A DNA stretch of 20,599 nucleotides from a virus. Taxonomy: Duplodnaviria > Heunggongvirae > Uroviricota > Caudoviricetes. Below the pieces are notes generated by a model. The model saw nothing but the letters and a program-made list of their open reading frames with translations. It searched no databases and was not told the origin of the DNA. Positions 2,313 to 15,518 of the stretch are shown piece after piece. Both the position numbers and the translations under genes were made by a program. The DNA lies in the IMG/VR virus record IMGVR_UViG_2541047903_000005; one strand, written 5' to 3'. Position 1 is the first letter of the stretch. Each line of letters opens with the position of its first letter.

Positions 2313-2341
2313 CGGGGGCGAAATGCCCCCGTGTCTTTTTT
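2313..2341 (+). terminator. GC-rich hairpin (CGGGGGC-gaaat-GCCCCCG) followed by a T-run, just after the capsid gene
   Basis: Perfect 7-bp stem, 5-nt loop, then tgtcTTTTTT read directly from the sequence; could act as a partial terminator or mRNA stabiliser inside the late operon. Confidence 0.4.
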
Positions 2342-5230: not shown

Positions 5231-5670
5231 ACTTTGCCCTCAGACTGGCGCGTGAGATGGGGAGACCCGACTGGCGCGCCATGCTTGCCGGGATGACATC
5301 CACCGAATATGCCGACTGGCACCGTTTTTACCGCACGCATTATTTTCAGGATACCCAGCTGGATATGCATTTTTCCGGGCTGACGTACGCTGTACTCAGC
5401 CTGTTTTTTTGCGATCCGGATATGCATCCCTCTGATTTCAGTCTGCTTGTCCCCCGGCATGAGGAAGAGCAGGTGGAGAGGCCGGATGAGGACAAAATGC
5501 TGATGCAGAAAGCGGCAGGACTTGCCGGAGGCGTCCGGTTCGGTGGGGACGGAGGGCGCGATATTTTATCGTCTGCGGATGTGGCGGATGTCATGGTGGA
5601 TGATGCCGCATTAATGATGGCTTCAGCGGGGATTCCGGGAGGTGTGAGATATGTCCCAGCCGGTTGGTGA
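4799..5670 (+). CDS. GT: Tail assembly chaperone G-T fusion made by programmed -1 ribosomal frameshift
   Basis: Slippery heptamer G GGA AAG at 5206-5212 in the G frame; the -1 frame is the one that is open through to the stop at 5670 (ORF-track ORF 5257..5670); arrangement is that established for lambda G/G-T. Confidence 0.8.
5206..5212 (+). other. -1 frameshift slippery site GGGAAAG
   Basis: Read from the sequence (ttctgcGGGAAAGtcttc), 18 nt before the G stop codon. Confidence 0.8.
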
Positions 5671-8212
5671 TCTTGTTATTGACCTTAGTCTGGATGCTGT
5701 CCGTTTCGATGAGCAGATGAGCCGGGTAAGGCGTCATTTTTCAGGTCTGGATACCGACGCCAGAAAAACCGCCAGTGCTGTTGAACAGGGCCTGAGCCGC
5801 CAGGCGCTGGCTGCACAAAAAGCCGGGATTTCCGTCGGGCAGTATAAAGCGGCCATGCGAACCCTGCCCGCACAGTTTACGGATATCGCCACGCAGCTTG
5901 CCGGTGGTCAGAATCCCTGGCTGATCCTGCTGCAACAGGGCGGTCAGGTGAAGGACTCCTTCGGCGGGATGATCCCCATGTTCAGGGGGCTTGCCGGTGC
6001 GATCACCCTGCCGATGGTCGGGGTCACCTCGCTGGCGGTGGCGACAGGTGCGCTGGTGTACGCCTGGTACCAGGGAGATTCCACGCTTTCAGCGTTTAAT
6101 AAAACCCTGGTTCTTTCCGGTAATCAGTCCGGACTGACTGCCGATCGCATGCTGACGCTCTCCAGAGCCGGACAGGCCGCAGGGCTGACGTTTAACCAGG
6201 CGAGTGAGTCACTGGCAGCCCTGGTGAATGCCGGTGTGCGTGGTGGTGAACAGTTTGATGCCATCAACCAGAGTGTCGCGCGTTTTGCTTCTGCATCCGG
6301 TGTGGAGGTGGACAAGGTTGCAGAGGCTTTCGGAAAACTGACCACTGACCCGACGTCGGGGCTGATGGCGATGGCGAAGCAGTTCCATAACGTGACGGCG
6401 GAGCAGATTGCGTATGTTGCTCAGTTGCAGCGTTCCGGCGATGAAACCGGGGCATTGCAGGCGGCGAACGAGGCCGCAACGAAAGGGTTTGATGACCAGA
6501 CCCGCCGCCTGAAAGAGAACATGGGCACGCTGGAGACCTGGGCAGACAGGACAGCGCGGGCATTCAAATCCATGTGGGATGCGGTGCTGGATATTGGTCG
6601 TCCTGATACCGCGCAGGAGATGCTGATTAAGGCAGAGGCTGCGTTTAAGAAAGCAGACGACATCTGGAATCTGCGCAAGGATGATTATTTTGTTAACGAT
6701 GAAGCGCGGGCGCGTTACTGGGATGATCGTGAAAAGGCCCGTCTTGCGCTTGAAGCCGCCCGAAAGAAGGCTGAGCAGCAGACTCAACAGGACAAAAATG
6801 CGCAGCAGCAGAGCGATACCGAAGCGTCACGGCTGAAATATACCGAAGAGGCGCAGAAGGCTTACGAACGGCTGCAGACGCCGCTGGAGAAATATACCGC
6901 CCGTCAGGAAGAACTGAACAAGGCACTGAAAGACGGGAAAATCCTGCAGGCGGATTACAACACGCTGATGGCGGCGGCGAAAAAGGATTATGAAGCGACG
7001 CTGAAAAAGCCGAAACAGTCCGGCGTGAAGGTGTCTGCGGGCGATCGTCAGGAAGACAGTGCTCATGCTGCCCTGCTGACGCTTCAGGCAGAACTCCGGA
7101 CGCTGGAGAAGCATGCCGGAGCGAATGAGAAAATCAGCCAGCAGCGCCGGGATTTGTGGAAGGCGGAGAGTCAGTTCGCGGTACTGGAGGAGGCGGCGCA
7201 ACGTCGCCAGCTGTCTGCACAGGAGAAATCCCTGCTGGCGCATAAAGATGAGACGCTGGAGTACAAACGCCAGCTGGCTGCACTTGGCGACAAGGTTACG
7301 TATCAGGAGCGCCTGAACGCGCTGGCGCAGCAGGCGGATAAATTCGCACAGCAGCAACGGGCAAAACGGGCCGCTATTGATGCGAAAAGCCGGGGGCTGA
7401 CTGACCGGCAGGCAGAACGGGAAGCCACGGAACAGCGCCTGAAGGAACAGTATGGCGATAATCCTCTGGCGCTGAATAACGTCATGTCAGAGCAGAAAAA
7501 GACCTGGGCGGCTGAAGACCTGCTTCGCGGGAACTGGATGGCAGGCCTCAGGTCCGGCTGGAGTGAGTGGGAAGAGAGTGCCACGGACAGTATGTCGCAG
7601 GTTAAAAGTGCTGCCACGCAGACCTTTGATGGTATTGCGCAGAATATGGCGGCGATGCTGACCGGCAGTGAACAGAACTGGCGCAGCTTCACCCGCTCCG
7701 TGCTGTCCATGATGACAGAAATTCTGCTTAAGCAGGCAATGGTGGGGATTGTCGGGAGTATCGGCAGCGCTATTGGCGGGGCTGTTGGTGGCGGCGCATC
7801 CGCGTCAGGCGGTACAGCCATTCAGGCAGCTGCGGCGAAATTCCATTTTGCGACCGGAGGATTTACGGGAACCGGCGGCAAATATGAACCTGCGGGGATT
7901 GTTCATCGCGGGGAGTTTGTCTTCACGAAGGAGGCGACCAGCCGGATTGGTGTCGGCAATCTGTACCGCCTGATGCGGGGCTATGCGGAAGGTGGTTATG
8001 TCGGCGGTGCCGGAAGTCCGGCGCAGATGCGGCGGGCGGAAGGCATTAATTTTAATCAGAACAATCACGTGGTGATTCAGAACGACGGCCCCAACGGGCG
8101 GGCAGGGCCGCAGCTGATGAAAGCGGTGTATGAGATGGCCCGCAAGGGGGCACAGGATGAACTCCGGCTGCAGTTGCGTGATGGCGGTATGTTATCAGGG
8201 AGCGGTGGATGA
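5651..8212 (+). CDS. H: Tail tape measure protein H
   Basis: 853 aa; appears almost collinear with recalled lambda gpH over long stretches (GISVGQYKAAMR, LILLQQGGQVKDSFGGMIPMF, coiled-coil middle, Gly-rich C-terminal part); start overlaps the end of the T frame. Confidence 0.95.
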   Translation: MSQPVGDLVIDLSLDAVRFDEQMSRVRRHFSGLDTDARKTASAVEQGLSRQALAAQKAGISVGQYKAAMRTLPAQFTDIATQLAGGQNPWLILLQQGGQVKDSFGGMIPMFRGLAGAITLPMVGVTSLAVATGALVYAWYQGDSTLSAFNKTLVLSGNQSGLTADRMLTLSRAGQAAGLTFNQASESLAALVNAGVRGGEQFDAINQSVARFASASGVEVDKVAEAFGKLTTDPTSGLMAMAKQFHNVTAEQIAYVAQLQRSGDETGALQAANEAATKGFDDQTRRLKENMGTLETWADRTARAFKSMWDAVLDIGRPDTAQEMLIKAEAAFKKADDIWNLRKDDYFVNDEARARYWDDREKARLALEAARKKAEQQTQQDKNAQQQSDTEASRLKYTEEAQKAYERLQTPLEKYTARQEELNKALKDGKILQADYNTLMAAAKKDYEATLKKPKQSGVKVSAGDRQEDSAHAALLTLQAELRTLEKHAGANEKISQQRRDLWKAESQFAVLEEAAQRRQLSAQEKSLLAHKDETLEYKRQLAALGDKVTYQERLNALAQQADKFAQQQRAKRAAIDAKSRGLTDRQAEREATEQRLKEQYGDNPLALNNVMSEQKKTWAAEDLLRGNWMAGLRSGWSEWEESATDSMSQVKSAATQTFDGIAQNMAAMLTGSEQNWRSFTRSVLSMMTEILLKQAMVGIVGSIGSAIGGAVGGGASASGGTAIQAAAAKFHFATGGFTGTGGKYEPAGIVHRGEFVFTKEATSRIGVGNLYRLMRGYAEGGYVGGAGSPAQMRRAEGINFNQNNHVVIQNDGPNGRAGPQLMKAVYEMARKGAQDELRLQLRDGGMLSGSGG

Positions 8213-9246: not shown

Positions 9247-9990
9247 ATGACACAGACTGAATCAGCGATTCTGGCGCATGCCCGGCGGTGTGCGCCTGCG
9301 GAGTCGTGCGGCTTCGTGATAAGCACGCCGGAGGGGGAGCGGTATATCCCTTGTGTGAATATTTCCGCGGAGCCGGAGGCGTATTTTCGTATCGCACCGG
9401 AAGACTGGCTGCGGGCAGAGATGCAGGGGGAGATTGTGGCACTGGTCCACAGTCATCCCGGTGGGCTGCCCTGGCTGAGCGAGGCTGACCGGCGGCTGCA
9501 GATAAAAAGCGCACTGCCCTGGTGGCTGGTCTGCCGGGGTGACATTCACAAATTCCGCTGTGTGCCACATCTGACGGGACGGCGCTTTGAGCACGGGGTG
9601 ACGGACTGTTACACGCTGTTCCGGGATGCTTATCATCTGGCGGGGACTGAAATGCCGGATTTTCATCGCGAGGATGACTGGTGGCGCAACGGCCAGAACC
9701 TGTACCTGGACAACCTGGCGGAAAACGGCTTTTGCCGGGTGTCTCCGTCCTCTGCACAGGCAGGCGATGTGCTGCTGTGCTGCTTTGGTTCATCGGTGCC
9801 GAATCATGCCGCCGTTTACTGTGGTGACGGCGAGCTGCTGCACCATATTCCTGAACAACTGAGTAAACGGGAGAGGTATTCCGAAAAATGGCAACGACGA
9901 ACGCATTCAGTCTGGCGTCACCGCCACTGGCACGCATCCGCCTTTACGGGGATTTACAACGATTTGGCCGCCGCCTCAGCCTGTATGTGA
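9247..9990 (+). CDS. K: Tail assembly protein K (JAMM/MPN plus NlpC/P60 two-domain protein)
   Basis: Begins at the ATG giving MTQTESAILAHARRCAPAESCGF; the ORF-track ORF 8986..9990 starts upstream inside L and is an over-extension; JAMM motif HSHPGG...SEAD and an NlpC/P60-like Cys/His region (GVTDCYTLF ... NHAAVYCGDGELLHH). Confidence 0.9.
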   Translation: MTQTESAILAHARRCAPAESCGFVISTPEGERYIPCVNISAEPEAYFRIAPEDWLRAEMQGEIVALVHSHPGGLPWLSEADRRLQIKSALPWWLVCRGDIHKFRCVPHLTGRRFEHGVTDCYTLFRDAYHLAGTEMPDFHREDDWWRNGQNLYLDNLAENGFCRVSPSSAQAGDVLLCCFGSSVPNHAAVYCGDGELLHHIPEQLSKRERYSEKWQRRTHSVWRHRHWHASAFTGIYNDLAAASACM

Positions 9991-10568
9991 ACACGGCAGC
10001 GGAAGCCATTCGCGCCCTGTCGATGCAGATGCCGGGCTTTCGCCGTCAGATGAACGAAGGCTGGTACCAGATACGTATTGCCGGTGATGACACGGCACCG
10101 GAGGCGGTGTACGCCCGTCTTCACGAACAGCTGGGTGAGGGAACGGTCATCCACATTGTGCCGCGACTGGCCGGGGCCGGAAAGGGTGGACTGCAGATTG
10201 TGCTGGGGGCGGCAGCCATCGTGGGCTCTTTCTTCACGGCCGGTGCCTCGATGGCGTTATGGGGTACAGCCCTGAGTGCCGGCGGTTTTTCTGCCACCAC
10301 GATGCTGTTTTCACTGGGGGCCAGCATGATACTGGGCGGTGTGGCCCAGATGCTGGCCCCGAAGGCAAAAACACCGGATTACCGCGCAACGGATAACGGC
10401 AGACAGAACACGTACTTTTCCTCACTGGATAACATGATTGCCCAGGGGAACCCGATGCCGGTGCCTTACGGGGAAATGCTGGTTGGCTCCCGCCGTATAT
10501 CCCAGGACATCAGCACCCGTGATGAAGGCGGGGGCGGAAAGGTCGTGGTTATCGGGCGGCAGGGGTAA
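9888..10568 (+). CDS. I: Tail assembly protein I
   Basis: ICLYGDLQRFGRR, IVLGAAAI.GSFFTAGA, QNTYFSSLDNM.AQGN match recalled lambda gpI; overlaps the 3' end of K as in lambda; Gly/Ala-rich hydrophobic C-terminal half. Confidence 0.9.
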   Translation: MATTNAFSLASPPLARIRLYGDLQRFGRRLSLYVNTAAEAIRALSMQMPGFRRQMNEGWYQIRIAGDDTAPEAVYARLHEQLGEGTVIHIVPRLAGAGKGGLQIVLGAAAIVGSFFTAGASMALWGTALSAGGFSATTMLFSLGASMILGGVAQMLAPKAKTPDYRATDNGRQNTYFSSLDNMIAQGNPMPVPYGEMLVGSRRISQDISTRDEGGGGKVVVIGRQG

Positions 10569-10613
10569 AAAGAATAAAAAAATCCCGCAGTGATCGCGGA
10601 CAGGAACTGCGGG
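10569..10613 (-). terminator. Intrinsic terminator for the minus strand, immediately after the I stop codon
   Basis: On the minus strand an 8-bp stem (CCCGCAGT/ACTGCGGG, + coordinates 10584-10591 and 10606-10613) is followed by ATTTTTTTATTCTTTTT; the 14-nt loop is long but the T-tract is strong. Confidence 0.45.
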
Positions 10614-10672
10614 AGAGTTACGAAGATTAAGTGTAAGGAATTATTCTTATATCACGACAAAAAAATTAACGC
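10576..10672 (-). ncRNA. Candidate ~95-nt small RNA transcribed antisense to the tail operon, in the I-J spacer
   Basis: Bounded by a sigma70-like promoter (10679-10706, minus) and the minus-strand terminator (10569-10613); no ATG-initiated ORF on the minus strand in this interval; AT-rich. Boundaries are approximate and the call is a hypothesis from sequence only. Confidence 0.3.
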
Positions 10673-10678
10673 AGAGAA

Positions 10679-10706
10679 ATTATACGCGCCACAGTCAGTT
10701 TGTGAA
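10679..10706 (-). promoter_or_regulatory. Sigma70-like promoter on the minus strand: -35 TTCACA, 16-bp spacer, -10 TATAAT
   Basis: Minus strand reads TTCACAaactgactgtggcgcgTATAAT; + coordinates -10 = 10679-10684, -35 = 10701-10706; perfect -10 hexamer and 5/6 -35 match. Confidence 0.4.
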
Positions 10707-10778
10707 AATGTGAAGATATTCAGAATTTTTATGCCATTACCGGTTTTAACCAACAGGATTATCGGTGGGCATGAAAGA

Positions 10779-10814
10779 AAACCCCGGTATCTGCTGATAC
10801 CGGGGTTTCTCTTT
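10779..10814. terminator. Strong hairpin with U-tracts on both sides (bidirectional terminator-like) upstream of J
   Basis: AAACCCCGGTAT-ctgctg-ATACCGGGGTTT, a perfect 9 to 12-bp stem with 6-nt loop, followed by TTTCTCTTT on + and preceded by GAAAGAAA (T-run on the minus strand). Confidence 0.5.
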
Positions 10815-10911
10815 AGCATGGCAGAAATGTGTTTCATGCTTTTCGGGCGAAGGATATCCGACTTCTGTACGGAATGGCAAGTGGCGGTTAATTTATTCAG
10901 GGGAAGGCTGT

Positions 10912-13900
10912 ATGGGAAAAGGTGGCGGTAAGGCACACACGCCTCGTGAGGCGAAGGATAATCTCAAATCCACGCAGATGATGAGTGTGATTGATGCGAT
11001 TGGTGAGGGACCGATAGAAGGTCCGGTGAAGGGACTGCAGAGTATTCTGGTGAACAAAACCCCGCTGACGGACACGGACGGTAATCCCGTGATACACGGT
11101 GTGACTGCGGTCTGGCGTGCCGGGGAGCAGGAGCAGACACCACCGGAAGGCTTTGAGTCCTCCGGAGCTGAAACCGGACTGGGCGTGGAAGTGACGAAGG
11201 CAAAACCGGTGACGCGCACCATTACGTCCGCGAACATTGACCGCCTGCGGGTTACCTTCGGGGTGCAGTCACTGGTGCAGACCACGTCAAAGGGCGACCG
11301 TAATCCTTCCTCTGTCCGGATTCTGATTCAGTTACAGCGTAATGGCCGCTGGGTGACGGAAAAGGATGTCACCATTAACGGCAAGACCACCTCGCAGTTC
11401 CTGGCCTCGGTGATTCTGGATAATCTGCCTCCCCGGCCCTTTAACATCCGGATGGTCAGGGAGACGGCGGACAGCACCACGGACCAGCTGCAGAATAAGA
11501 CGCTGTGGTCGTCATACACCGAAATCATCGATGTGAAACAGTGCTACCCGAACACGGCCATTGTGGGGCTGCAGGTGGATGCGGAGCAGTTCGGCGGCCA
11601 GCAGATGACGGTGAACTACCATATCCGCGGTCGCATCATCCAGGTGCCGTCAAACTATGACCCGGAAAAACGCACGTACAGTGGTATCTGGGACGGCAGC
11701 CTGAAACCGGCATACAGCAACAACCCGGCCTGGTGTCTGTGGGACATGCTGACTCACCCGCGCTACGGCATGGGAAAACGTCTGGGGGCGGCGGATGTGG
11801 ACAAGTGGGCGCTGTATGCCATCGGGCAGTACTGCGACCAGACGGTCCCGGATGGTTTCGGGGGGACCGAGCCGCGGATGACCTTTAATGCGTACCTGGC
11901 ACAACAGCGTAAGGCGTGGGACGTTCTCAGTGATTTCTGCTCTGCGATGCGCTGTATGCCGGTATGGAACGGCCAGACGCTGACGTTCGTTCAGGACCGT
12001 CCGTCGGATGTGGTGTGGCCGTACACCAACAGCGATGTGGTGGTGGATGATAACGGCGTGGGTTTCCGCTACAGCTTCAGTGCCCTGAAGGACCGGCACA
12101 CGGCAGTGGAGGTGAATTACACCGACCCGCAGAACGGCTGGCAGACCTCCACGGAACTGGTGGAAGACCCGGAAGCCATACTGCGCTACGGACGCAACCT
12201 GCTGAAGATGGACGCGTTCGGCTGTACCAGCCGCGGTCAGGCCCACCGTGCCGGGCTGTGGGTGATAAAGACCGAACTGCTGGAAACGCAGACGGTGGAT
12301 TTCACGCTCGGGTCACAGGGGCTGCGTCACACACCCGGTGACATCATTGAAATCTGTGATAACGACTATGCCGGGACCATGACCGGCGGACGTGTCCTGT
12401 CCATCGATGCCGCCAGCCGTACCCTGACGCTGGACCGGGAGGTGACACTGCCGGAGACCGGCACGGCCACTGTTAATCTGATTAACGGCAGCGGTAAGCC
12501 GGCGAGCGTGGCCATCACCGCACACCCCGCGCCTGACCGGATACAGGTCAGCACCCTGCCGGATGGTGTGGAGACATACGGTGTGTGGGGACTCTCCCTG
12601 CCGTCACTGCGTCGTCGCCTGTTCCGCTGTGTCTCCATCCGGGAAAACACGGACGGCACCTTTGCCATCACGGCGGTGCAGCACGTACCTGAAAAAGAAG
12701 CCATCGTGGATAACGGGGCCCGCTTTGAGCCGCAGTCAGGCACCCTGAACAGCGTTATCCCACCGGCAGTGCAGCACCTGACGGTGGAGGTGAGCGCAGC
12801 TGACGGTCAGTATCTGGCACAGGCGAAATGGGACACGCCGCGGGTGGTGAAGGGTGTGCGCTTCAGTCTGCGTCTGACCAGCGGAAGCGGAGAAGACAGC
12901 CGTCTGGTGAGCACCGCCATCACCGCAGACACGGAGCACCGTTTCAGTGGTCTGCCGCTGGGGGAATACACCCTGACGGTGCGGGCCATTAACAGCTACG
13001 GCCAGCAGGGCGAACCTGCGACCACCACCTTCCGGATTAACGCGCCTGCAAAACCCGCCACCATTGAGCTGACGCCGGGGTATTTTCAGATAACGGCGGT
13101 ACCGGTGCTGGCGGTGTATGACCCGACGGTGCAGTTTGAGTTCTGGTTTTCGGAAAAACGCATCACGAACACGGCACAGGTGGAAAAATCTGCCCGTTAT
13201 CTGGGGACCGGCAGTCAGTGGACTGTCCAGGGCGATCGGATTAAGCCGGGGATGGATTTCTGGTTTTATGTGCGCAGTGTCAACCTGGTGGGCAAGTCTG
13301 CATTTGTGGAAGCCAGCGGGCAGGCCAGCAATGATGCAAAAGGGTATCTGGAATTTTTCCGTGGTCTGATAGATGAGACGCTGCTGGGGCAGGCACTGAA
13401 AAAGCGCATTGATGCGTCAGCCCTGCGATCGGATGTCACTCAACTGGAAGAGAATATCGGACAACTGGAAGAAGACATCCGTCAGCGGATGGACACGGAT
13501 ATTGCGGAAGTGACCCGGAAAATCGGGGAGGCGGAAAACAGCCTCACGCAGCTGGTTGCGAAAAAGAATGAGGATCAGACGCTGGCCATCGCGCAGGTGA
13601 GTCAGAAAGTGGACCGTGTCAGCAGTGAAATCTCACAGACGGTCAGTCAGAGCAGTGAGGAAAATACCCGACAGATAGCACAGGTCCGTCAGTACGTGGA
13701 CAAAAAGCAAAGTGAAATCAAGCAGACAGTCAGCCAGGGCCAGTCAGAAAACGCCCGACAGATAGCACAGGTCCGCCAGTACGTGGATAAAAAAGGGAGT
13801 GAAATTACCTCGACCACGGATAAAAAGCTGGGTGACCAGGCCGTGACCATACAGCAAATCCAGCGGGTTCAGTCAGACACGCGCAATGAGCTGAATGCCA

Positions 13901-14712
13901 TGTATATGCTGAAGGTGCAGAAAACAAAAAACGGTATTCCCTATGTGGCCGGGATTGGTGCGGGGATTGAGGATGTTGATGGTCAGACCCTGAGTAACAT
14001 TCTGCTGCAGGCCGATCGCATTGCGATGATTACCCCGGAGAACGGCAACACCACGCCGCTGTTTGTGGCGCAGGGGAATCAGCTGTTCATGAACGACGTG
14101 TTCCTGAAGCGACTGTTTGCGGTGAGCATCACGTCATCCGGCAATCCTCCGACGTTTTCCCTGACGCCGGATGGCAGGCTGACAGCCCGCAATGCGGATA
14201 TCAGTGGAGCCATCACGGCGAATACCGGCACGCTCAATAATGTCACCATTAACGAGAACTGTGTCATCAGAGGGAAACTGTCTGCAAACCAGATTGAAGG
14301 CGATCTCGTTAAAACAGTGGGTAAGGCTTTCCCTCGTGACTCCCGTGCACCGGAGCGTTGGCCATCAGGAACCATTACCGTCAGGGTTTATGACGATCAG
14401 CCGTTTAACCGGCAGATTGTTATTCCGGCGGTGGCTTTCAGCGGTGCCAGACATGAGCGGGAGAACAGCGATACTTATTCGTCATGCCGCCTGATAGTGA
14501 AGAAAAACGGTGCTGAAATTTATAACCGTACCGCGATGGATAATACGCTGGTTTACAGTGGTGTTATTGATATGCCTGCTGGTCGCGGCCACATGACGCT
14601 GGAGTTTTCTGTATCAGCATGGTGGGTAAATGGCTGGTATCCCACAGCAAGTATCAGCGATTTGCTGGTTGTTGTGATGAAGAAAGCCACTGCAGGCATC
14701 ACGATTAGCTGA
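10912..14712 (+). CDS. J: Central tail fibre / host specificity protein J (tip attachment protein)
   Basis: 1266 aa; N-terminal and central regions match recalled lambda gpJ ([91 protein letters not shown]); includes a coiled-coil expansion and a C-terminal receptor-binding region. Confidence 0.95.
13624..13830 (+). repeat. In-frame tandem repeat, 87-bp unit, about 2.3 copies, inside J
   Basis: Unit starts at 13624, 13711 and 13798 (agtgaaat...); encodes repeated 29-aa units SEI.QTVSQ...[13 protein letters not shown]. Confidence 0.75.
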
Positions 14713-14730: not shown

Positions 14731-14757
14731 GGGCGCCAGAAATGGCGCCTTTTTTAT
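14731..14757 (+). terminator. Intrinsic terminator downstream of J
   Basis: GGCGCC-agaaat-GGCGCC followed by TTTTTTATT, about 20 bp after the J stop. Confidence 0.6.
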
Positions 14758-14779: not shown

Positions 14780-15379
14780 ATGCGTAAATTATGTGCTGTT
14801 ATTCTGTCCGCAGTAGTCTGGCTGGTTGCCGCTGGTACGCCAGCGAGCGCAGCAGAGCATCAGTCCACACTAAGCGCCGGGTATCTTCAGACCCACACTG
14901 ATATGCCAGGAAGCGATAATCTGAACGGGATTAACGTGAAATACCGTTATGAATTTACGGACACGCTGGGGCTGATTACGTCTTTCAGTTATGCCGACGC
15001 AGAAGATGAACAAAAAACGCATTACAGCGATACCCGCTGGCATGAAGATTCCGTGCGTAACCGCTGGTTCAGCGTAATGGCGGGGCCGTCTGTGCGCGTG
15101 AATGAATGGTTCAGCGCGTATGCGATGGCGGGTGTGGCTTACAGCCGTGTGTCGACTTTCTCCGGGGATTATCTCCGCGTAACTGACAACAAGGGGAAAA
15201 CGCACGACGTGCTGACCGGAAGTGATGACGGTCGCCACAGCAATACCTCTCTGGCGTGGGGGGCTGGCGTGCAGTTTAACCCGACCGAATCCGTGACCAT
15301 TGACCTTGCTTATGAAGGTTCCGGTAGTGGCGACTGGCGAACGGATGCATTTATTGTTGGTATCGGATACCGTTTCTGA
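14780..15379 (+). CDS. lom: Outer membrane protein Lom (Ail/Lom/OmpX-family beta-barrel), prophage moron
   Basis: 199 aa; signal-peptide-like N-terminus MRKLCAVILSAVVWLVAAGTPASA; matches recalled lambda Lom (SAGYL, INVKYRYEFTDTLG, WGAGVQFNPTESV, ending GYRF); lies between two terminators. Confidence 0.9.
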   Translation: MRKLCAVILSAVVWLVAAGTPASAAEHQSTLSAGYLQTHTDMPGSDNLNGINVKYRYEFTDTLGLITSFSYADAEDEQKTHYSDTRWHEDSVRNRWFSVMAGPSVRVNEWFSAYAMAGVAYSRVSTFSGDYLRVTDNKGKTHDVLTGSDDGRHSNTSLAWGAGVQFNPTESVTIDLAYEGSGSGDWRTDAFIVGIGYRF

Positions 15380-15483
15380 CAACAGACGCCGATTTATCTT
15401 CTGTAAATATTGTTATGATACGCAGGTTCATCCGCCTTATGGGGTGAACTGCGTTTGAGGAAACGTAAAGTTACACTGTCCTG

Positions 15484-15518
15484 AAGCCCGTGGCGTCACT
15501 GCTGCGGGCTTTTTTTAT
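15484..15518 (+). terminator. Intrinsic terminator downstream of lom
   Basis: AAGCCCG-(14-nt loop)-CGGGCTT followed by TTTTTTATT. Confidence 0.55.

Follow-up and report, generated by a model that had tools for sequence, protein, structure and literature searches.

Background

Late transcription in phage lambda is carried out by a Q-modified RNA polymerase that is resistant to terminators (PMC7547250), and late terminators that Q reads through (tR' and others) are expected to be silent for that polymerase and active for the ordinary one. Extra DNA carried in lambdoid late operons (morons) is edged by factor-independent terminators (Juhala et al. 2000, cited in PMC4104026). In the conjugative element Tn916, a terminator is reported to block premature expression of the element's genes until antitermination overcomes it on activation (PMC11658703). 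The small RNA PasB of EPEC strain E2348/69 (NC_011601 1466343-1466261, minus strand, 83 nt; Pearl Mizrahi et al. 2021, PMC8550237, table S6) is Hfq-stabilised, validated by northern blot, and located inside a phage structural-gene operon (PMC8550237). EHEC Sakai produces EcOnc22, EcOnc23 and EcOnc24, RNAs of about 85 nt that are destabilised without hfq (Tree et al. 2014, PMC4104026); the PasB table of PMC8550237 gives no EHEC homologue. PasB homologues are expressed from repressed prophage in both EPEC and EHEC (PMC8550237, PMC4104026), and the distribution of PasB is treated in bioRxiv 10.64898/2026.05.13.724894.

Here we describe a hairpin that shares the PasB intergenic region, between the tail genes I and J, and lies 120-200 nt from the small RNA gene; PasB is transcribed separately, from the opposite strand, and does not include the hairpin. 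The hairpin is an ordinary element rather than a new type of regulator, and its PasB cargo has already been published. What is added is the boundary and full anatomy of a pasB locus variant present in about one quarter of complete E. coli genomes; because E2348/69 and Sakai prophages Sp11 and Sp15 carry another, 'short' module at this position, the published EPEC and EHEC data on PasB do not cover this variant or its long-form hairpin. The product of most interest is the recurrence of unrelated terminators ahead of J, with cargo repeatedly inserted just upstream of them. Our literature searches found no published description of the hairpin sequence, which is unmarked in the annotated records inspected, and none of the function of the corresponding lambda hairpin.

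Results and discussion

A pasB moron in the gap between I and J

The window (the whole stretch of DNA analyzed, 20,599 nt, IMG/VR record IMGVR_UViG_2541047903_000005) is the head-tail region of a lambdoid prophage, with the plus-strand gene order H, M, L, K, I, J, lom. The genes that frame the analysis are:

5651-8212, plus strand: gene H
9888-10568, plus strand: tail assembly gene I
10912-14712, plus strand: tail tip/host specificity gene J
14780-15379, plus strand: lom

The I-J gap measures 343 nt in the window, versus 60 nt in lambda and 9 nt in phage Oslo, and this extra DNA between genes that are adjacent in related phages has its own promoter (11/12 matches) and its own terminator (a minus-strand hairpin followed by T7), as is characteristic of a moron. 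The original prediction had offered the hairpin as a possible right edge of an inserted moron, and it does lie at the J-proximal boundary of the insert; what had been overlooked is that the insert is pasB, on the opposite strand, and that phages free of any insert also have terminators ahead of J. The gap contains:

10576-10672, minus strand: pasB small RNA gene, homologue of the 83-nt PasB of E2348/69
10576-10614, minus strand: pasB intrinsic terminator (9-bp stem 10614-10606/10591-10583, 14-nt loop, then T7)
10679-10706, minus strand: pasB sigma-70 promoter, TTCACA-16-TATAAT, 11/12 matches
10709-10724: CRP-like site TGTGA-N6-TCAGA (N6 = agatat), just upstream of the pasB -35 element
10736-10911: long J-proximal module, near-invariant, carrying the hairpin

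The 83-nt PasB aligns locally to 10576-10648 and by register occupies approximately 10576-10657, and the first 20 of the 23 bases of the published northern probe (AATCCCGCAGTGATCGCGGAGCT) match 10582-10601. E2348/69 PasB sits between the genes that RefSeq names 'tail assembly protein' and gpJ; the window copy agrees with it in homology, I-J position, orientation and synteny, and shares its terminator, body and promoter. Judged from the promoter, transcription would begin near 10672; the published 5' end lies about 15 nt further downstream, which points either to processing of the RNA or to an approximate published end. The EcOnc coordinates in the 2014 list refer to NC_002695.1; once shifted by about 140 nt to NC_002695.2 (calibrated with AsxR), the EcOnc peaks coincide with the PasB body within the Sp11 and Sp15 I-J gaps (the Sakai PasB-like loci are NC_002695.2 2166672-2166911, L122, and 2902691-2902930, L123), and by this alignment EcOnc22/23/24 are probably PasB homologues. 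Both gaps, that of Sp11 and that of Sp15, are of the short-module type.

Other small RNAs considered as the insert were set aside by position: the anti-sRNAs of the AgvB/AsxR type are located at the PR' moron site rather than between I and J, and HnrS (EcOnc10-12) is located in the lysis/terminase region of Sp9, Sp10 and Sp12. Rfam searched across the window, pasB and hairpin included, returned 0 matches at the gathering threshold and, under permissive settings, only sub-threshold matches of at most 19.6 bits, the two alignments shown matching through a terminator stem. The pasB gene is unannotated in all of the RefSeq and GenBank records inspected.

Structure and stability of the hairpin

The hairpin (10771-10814, CATGAAAGAAAACCCCGGTATCTGCTGATACCGGGGTTTCTCTTTA; within the wider stretch 10764-10823, GGTGGGCATGAAAGAAAACCCCGGTATCTGCTGATACCGGGGTTTCTCTTTAGCATGG) and the elements that overlap or adjoin it are:

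10779-10808, both strands: core hairpin, arms AAACCCCGGTATC and GATACCGGGGTTT, perfect 13 bp, loop TGCT
10771-10817, both strands: extended terminator unit, comprising A-rich tract GAAAGAAAA, stem-loop and T-rich tract TTTCTCTTT; terminator score d of +22.3 (plus) and +32.9 (minus)
10771-10797, plus strand: 8-codon ORF MKENPGIC with its stop (ATG 10771, TGA 10795-10797), judged not functional
10851-10880, minus strand: weak promoter-like site TTGCCA-18-TATCCT (9/12), which could start an antisense RNA of about 70 nt ending at the hairpin; unsupported

A repeat finder returned the two arms (10779-10791 and 10796-10808) as 13-nt segments, 100% complementary and spaced by 4 nt. The stem has a G+C-rich core of 10 bp, and pairing reaches approximately 10774-10813 if one bulge is allowed. 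With TTTCTCTTT lying 3' of the core on the plus strand and TTTTCTTTC on the minus strand, U-tracts flank the hairpin on both sides (UUUCUCUUU on the plus strand and UUUUCUUUC on the minus strand, each with U at 7/9 positions). The perfect hairpin with U-tracts on both sides that had been read from the letters is thus borne out by the repeat finder, by folding and by the sequence; the pairing is perfect as described, but the stem is 13 bp with a 4-nt loop rather than the 12 bp with a 6-nt loop originally given.

The folding energy, the first check that had been proposed, is -28.7 kcal/mol (plus) and -28.4 kcal/mol (minus) for the 56-nt hairpin stretch, with z-scores of -6.0 and -7.0, respectively, and 0 of 200 shuffles equally stable. 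Among all 44-nt segments on both strands the hairpin ranks approximately fourth to fifth (-27.1, versus a mean of -8.8 and standard deviation of 4.0). The statement that it is far more stable than its neighbors therefore holds for the intergenic region but not overall, the segment 10317-10360 in gene I being stronger (-34.5 kcal/mol). This gene I segment is the most stable local fold in the window, with 12-bp arms GGGGCCAGCATG and CATGCTGGCCCC lying in a Gly/Ala-rich coding segment.

The hairpin has the features of an intrinsic terminator, namely a short-looped, G+C-rich stem (about 5-14 bp) and, directly 3' of it, a U-rich tract. We scored perfect stems across the window with a d'Aubenton-Carafa type terminator score, using ViennaRNA energies (a built-in terminator scan missed the hairpin only because it counted the AAA/TTT extension as stem). 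The score exceeds zero in only six hairpins of the 20.6-kb window, at the following locations:

2313-2331, plus strand: just 3' of the probable major capsid gene (342-aa ORF, 1276-2304)
10782-10805, plus and minus strands: the pre-J hairpin, d +22.3 (plus) and +32.9 (minus)
14732-14749, plus strand: directly 3' of J
15486-15509, plus strand: 3' of lom
19535-19518, minus strand: near 19.5 kb

As sequence anatomy, then, a terminator on either strand stands as predicted, and the hairpin looks like a bidirectional Rho-independent terminator by sequence definition. It resembles the bidirectional terminators found between convergent units in being a perfect palindrome with an A-tract and a T-tract and in being terminator-grade on both strands, but no known convergent transcripts meet at it, and pasB, the closest unit on the minus strand, has its start downstream of the hairpin.

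The score is the better on the minus strand, and this, together with the promoter-like site at 10880-10851, raises a second minus-strand small RNA of about 70-75 nt, starting from TTGCCA-18-TATCCT at approximately 10844 and ending in UUUUCUUUC near 10771. The predicted RNA does have the form of a small RNA (a small 5' hairpin, an A-rich linker and a terminator; -31.9 kcal/mol, z -7.1), and several small RNAs per prophage are common (PMC4104026); however, that z-score is driven by the terminator itself, and the promoter is weak, with 9/12 matches and an 18-nt spacer, sites of this quality showing no excess over shuffled sequence (four found versus 2.5 expected). Moreover, the Hfq-CRAC list, which includes EcOnc22-24 (Sp15, Sp14 and Sp11), has no peak at the long-module gap of Sakai Sp12 (NC_002695.2 2217392-2217732), and the antisense U-tract is absent from the short, lambda and HK forms of the hairpin described below. 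We regard a second small RNA as quite unlikely.

Terminator-grade hairpins ahead of J in other lineages

Three further sequence forms of hairpin occupy this position. The short module carries its own hairpin, ACAGGCAYCC-nnnn-GGRTGCCTGT, followed on the tail-gene strand by TGTTTTTGTG, CGTTTTTGG or TGTTTTCTGG, with no U-tract on the opposite strand. Among the 16 distinct variants of this hairpin, 98.8% of cells are paired; at one position C-G gives way to U-A by way of U-G, a compensatory covariation that is statistically weak (the observed score is reached by 36/500 shuffles).

Lambda itself, which has no pasB, carries AAACCGCC-tgcg-GGCGGTTT followed by TGTCATTT between I and J (J02459, approximately 15467-15490). 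The lambda hairpin is like that of the window in its slot, its G+C stem, its 4-nt loop and its U-tract on the tail-gene strand; it differs in that its stem is 8 bp, of unrelated sequence and 25 nt from J (103-106 nt in the long form), and in having neither an antisense U-tract nor an adjoining small RNA gene. About 70 loci keep the lambda-type stem (AAACCGCC...GGCGGTTTTGTC) with four different loops, and in one variant, which has gained a lipoprotein-like gene, the stem reads GAGCCGCC...GGCGGCTT, a compensatory replacement of A-U by G-C. That gene encodes 116 amino acids (MNKTILFCTIIALTGC...) and lies between I and a lambda-type J (loci L297, 484-834, and L305); in L297 it ends 4 nt ahead of the pre-J hairpin, which could therefore be its terminator.

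In HK446/HK022-type loci the hairpin is GGCCACC-ttcg-GGTGGC followed by TTTTTTT (GGCCACC...GGTGGCTTTTTTT) and lies 17-19 nt before the J start, placing the lambda and HK types together at 17-25 nt ahead of J. J of this type is only 37% identical to the window J, and the hairpin is kept where the upstream DNA is unrelated. Phage Oslo of Salmonella, with its 9-nt gap, has no hairpin ahead of J.

We counted loci with a terminator-grade hairpin (d > 0) ahead of J, with same-size coding segments as controls:

Window-type J: sense 64/76; coding controls 0-1; antisense 41/76 (the 38-42 long-module loci)
Lambda-type J: sense 73/75; coding controls 0-1; antisense 0/75
HK446-type J: sense 71/73; coding controls 0; antisense 2/73

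Because loci within a lineage are close relatives, these counts amount to approximately four independent cases. The sense-strand terminator would appear, from these comparisons, to be a constant of position across lineages in unrelated sequence forms; bidirectionality is limited to the long form, the short, lambda and HK forms having no antisense U-tract.

Cargo at the slot comprises pasB, the lipoprotein-like gene (L297) and uncharacterized unrelated DNA in HK446/HK022-type loci, and a conserved terminator slot ahead of J may explain why cargo has been gained repeatedly at the I-J junction. A broader reading, which we hold tentatively and at rather less than even odds, is that the pre-J terminator may be a selected architectural element whose sequence was replaced independently at least four times with position and strand kept, partitioning the late operon and making a safe docking site for cargo, the long form being derived and also shielding the pasB promoter.

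Stem-loops of REP elements between cistrons stabilize upstream mRNA in E. coli operons. Given that lambda has a pre-J hairpin without a moron, the primary role of the element could likewise be processing or stability of late mRNA rather than insulation: Q polymerase would pass, endonucleolytic cleavage would occur in the adjoining U-rich stretch, and the stem-loop would then shield the V-to-I message from 3' exonucleases and uncouple J from the upstream tail proteins. The hairpins 17-25 nt ahead of J in lambda and HK022-like phages without a moron are consistent with such a role, as is the similar hairpin 3' of the major capsid gene (2313-2331), and it is compatible with insulation. It leaves the antisense U-tract of the long form unexplained, however, and the long-form hairpin lies 103 nt from J, not directly before its ribosome-binding site; phage Oslo, moreover, does without the hairpin. 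On balance we consider this unlikely as the primary role, but it is a serious alternative.

The long module is a recently spread recombination unit

Alignment of the gaps of the window, E2348/69 PP6, phage PhiR5_1 and phage ASU11 reveals a mosaic. All of the aligned gaps share a left module that reaches approximately 10735 and contains, besides pasB and its promoter, a conserved stretch. To its right lies one of two modules unrelated in sequence: a 'long' one of 176-179 nt, carried by the window and ASU11, or a 'short' one of about 75-100 nt.

The long module occurs in approximately 1,445 of 5,426 complete E. coli genomes, at least 99% identical in 1442 of 1451 records. Thirteen phage records contain it, each 100% identical, and the hairpin loop is TGCT in all 112 IMG/VR contigs. 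E. albertii is the only other species with the module among species-representative genomes, and no homologue appears outside Escherichia. All loci inspected place it in the I-J gap, and among the matches listed none lies under an annotated gene except for one truncated copy. The pasB module is about 9% divergent between carriers, versus 99-100% identity of the long module across about 1,450 genomes, indicating that the long module is a recently spread recombination unit with a breakpoint near 10735. Its invariance in E. coli genomes, phages and IMG/VR also makes covariation unusable for this form.

Near-identity of this kind fits recent spread and does not necessarily imply selection, and the hairpin might accordingly be a functionless palindrome on recently spread DNA, or part of a small protein gene: phage ASU11 annotates a 66-aa ORF across it (10731-10931) as a 'hypothetical protein'. 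Against the first stands the filling of the same slot by four unrelated hairpins, with U-tracts correctly placed. Against the second, the two plus-strand ORFs across the hairpin have no PHROG family, a 94-aa minus-strand ORF has only a marginal PHROG match (E 0.095, with no stretch above threshold), and a 1-nt deletion that converts TTTCTCTTT to TTTTCTTT in five contigs fetched breaks the 66-aa frame. Both seem to us very unlikely, and the protein-coding reading was rejected on the missing plus-strand PHROG family and the frameshifting natural indels.

Several rearrangements cluster at the hairpin. An IS element lies just upstream of it in locus L016 (approximately 6000-6031), separating it from the pasB module, with the pasB promoter-region motif retained about 1.3 kb upstream. 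A 47-nt deletion in locus L193 removes it, and in strain NZRM4165 (L121, 1501-1613) a deletion runs from inside gene I into its right arm; these two losses indicate that the hairpin is not indispensable for prophage persistence.

A dispersed palindrome of the REP/BIME type was also set aside, the hairpin being present in one to four copies per genome and lying in the I-J context in the loci inspected. The search for divergent homologues in other species returned only chance-identical stems in two MAGs. In a Hahellaceae MAG, two rrn operons have the same 13-bp stem, with other loops and a U-run, 3' of their 5S rRNA, and the stem recurs in an Oscillospiraceae MAG (stem loci L005 6564-6591, L008 2752-2779 and L007 3978-4005). 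These stems are a case of convergence, not homology; their position 3' of 5S rRNA, where a terminator is expected, supports the terminator reading of the stem.

The short open reading frame does not resemble an attenuator

The 8-codon ORF MKENPGIC that had been reported to overlap the stem is present (ATG 10771 to TGA 10795-10797). The accompanying suggestion of a leader-peptide attenuator would have ribosomes on this ORF melt the 5' arm, leading to read-through into J. Its geometry is suggestive in that the ORF spans the 5' arm and has its stop in the loop; short modules also have ORFs that start just ahead of their hairpin; and lambda has an ORF of 22 codons (MQNVLCETACGRFCHLWSVRNG) that begins in the TGATG overlapping the I stop and crosses the pre-J hairpin, its TAA stop overlapping J codons 2-3 (locus L205, 745-813; J02459, approximately 15444-15512).

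An attenuator of this kind would have a working ribosome-binding site, mutually exclusive folds and a conserved ORF with regulatory codons, and none of these is found. The sole Shine-Dalgarno-like run near the mini-ORF, GGTGGG, ends 1 nt ahead of the AUG, which is itself predicted to be paired within a separate upstream hairpin. An antiterminator alternative is absent from the minimum free energy and centroid folds of 10690-10830, in which the terminator is intact beside that upstream hairpin. The mini-ORF contains no regulatory codons. Natural 1-nt indels (among them a deletion in the A-run of the hairpin region) change its length from 8 to 14 codons and frameshift the longer crossing ORFs; the ORFs at the short-module and lambda hairpins have other lengths and frames, and HK446 has no corresponding ATG. 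The frame of the lambda ORF is lost in lambda-type variants with a 1-nt indel and may therefore be due to chance, which alone gives a 20-codon open frame in about 4/10 cases. The downstream gene, finally, is the tail protein J rather than a biosynthetic operon. Poor spacing, a sequestered start codon, the single fold and the shifting frames thus all tell against the attenuator, and we judge it extremely unlikely.

A proposed insulator terminator at the edge of the moron

The reading that we favor, and think probable though well short of certain, is that the hairpin is an insulator terminator forming the J-proximal boundary of the pasB moron, placed in the regular terminator slot ahead of J. 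The hairpin structure, its U-tracts and scores, the pasB context, the mosaic modules and the recurrence in position are observed directly; termination itself, the transcription that it would target and the read-through by Q are what we infer from them.

In the repressed prophage, ordinary RNA polymerase would be halted at the hairpin. On the plus strand this would keep polymerase out of J, lom and the tail-fiber genes (stf), the polymerase arriving either as stray transcription through I or divergently from the A+T-rich pasB promoter region (no convincing plus-strand promoter was found between I and the hairpin, and none with at least 9/12 matches). On the minus strand, in the long form, polymerase coming back out of J would be blocked from the pasB promoter. 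In the lytic cycle, polymerase that starts at the late promoter and is modified by Q would pass the hairpin, and J would be made. Because all forms have the terminator ahead of J and the late polymerase is terminator-resistant, the element would act only on ordinary polymerase, that is, in the prophage state or on transcription from promoters other than PR'.

Sense-strand terminator-grade hairpins bracket J in the window, and likewise lom. With J bracketed in this way, expression of J, lom and the tail-fiber genes should be tightly tied to Q antitermination, and the proposal in the original prediction that J requires a terminator-resistant (Q-modified) polymerase is reasonable by analogy with lambda.

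The hairpin would thus share with late terminators of the tR' type their expected silence for Q polymerase, and it is like the moron-flanking terminators in being factor-independent and at the edge of extra late-operon DNA. It differs from the latter in that the moron here is a small RNA gene directed against the operon, with its own terminator at the other end. A further difference is the location of this bidirectional hairpin upstream of the promoter of the moron. The Tn916 terminator is an analogy in function only, since the element, the sequence and the antitermination system are all different. If the insulator role is true, the locus would provide a simple example of a prophage keeping accessory transcription out of its structural genes.

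A candidate CRP site upstream of pasB

The center of the CRP-like site in the gap lies about 44 bp ahead of where pasB is predicted to start, and the site is kept in all pasB variants fetched; the match alone is not significant (2 observed versus 0.82 expected). PasB levels in static overnight LB exceed those in virulence-activating medium, and Spf shows the reverse (PMC8550237); such a pattern for PasB would fit activation by cAMP-CRP through this candidate site.
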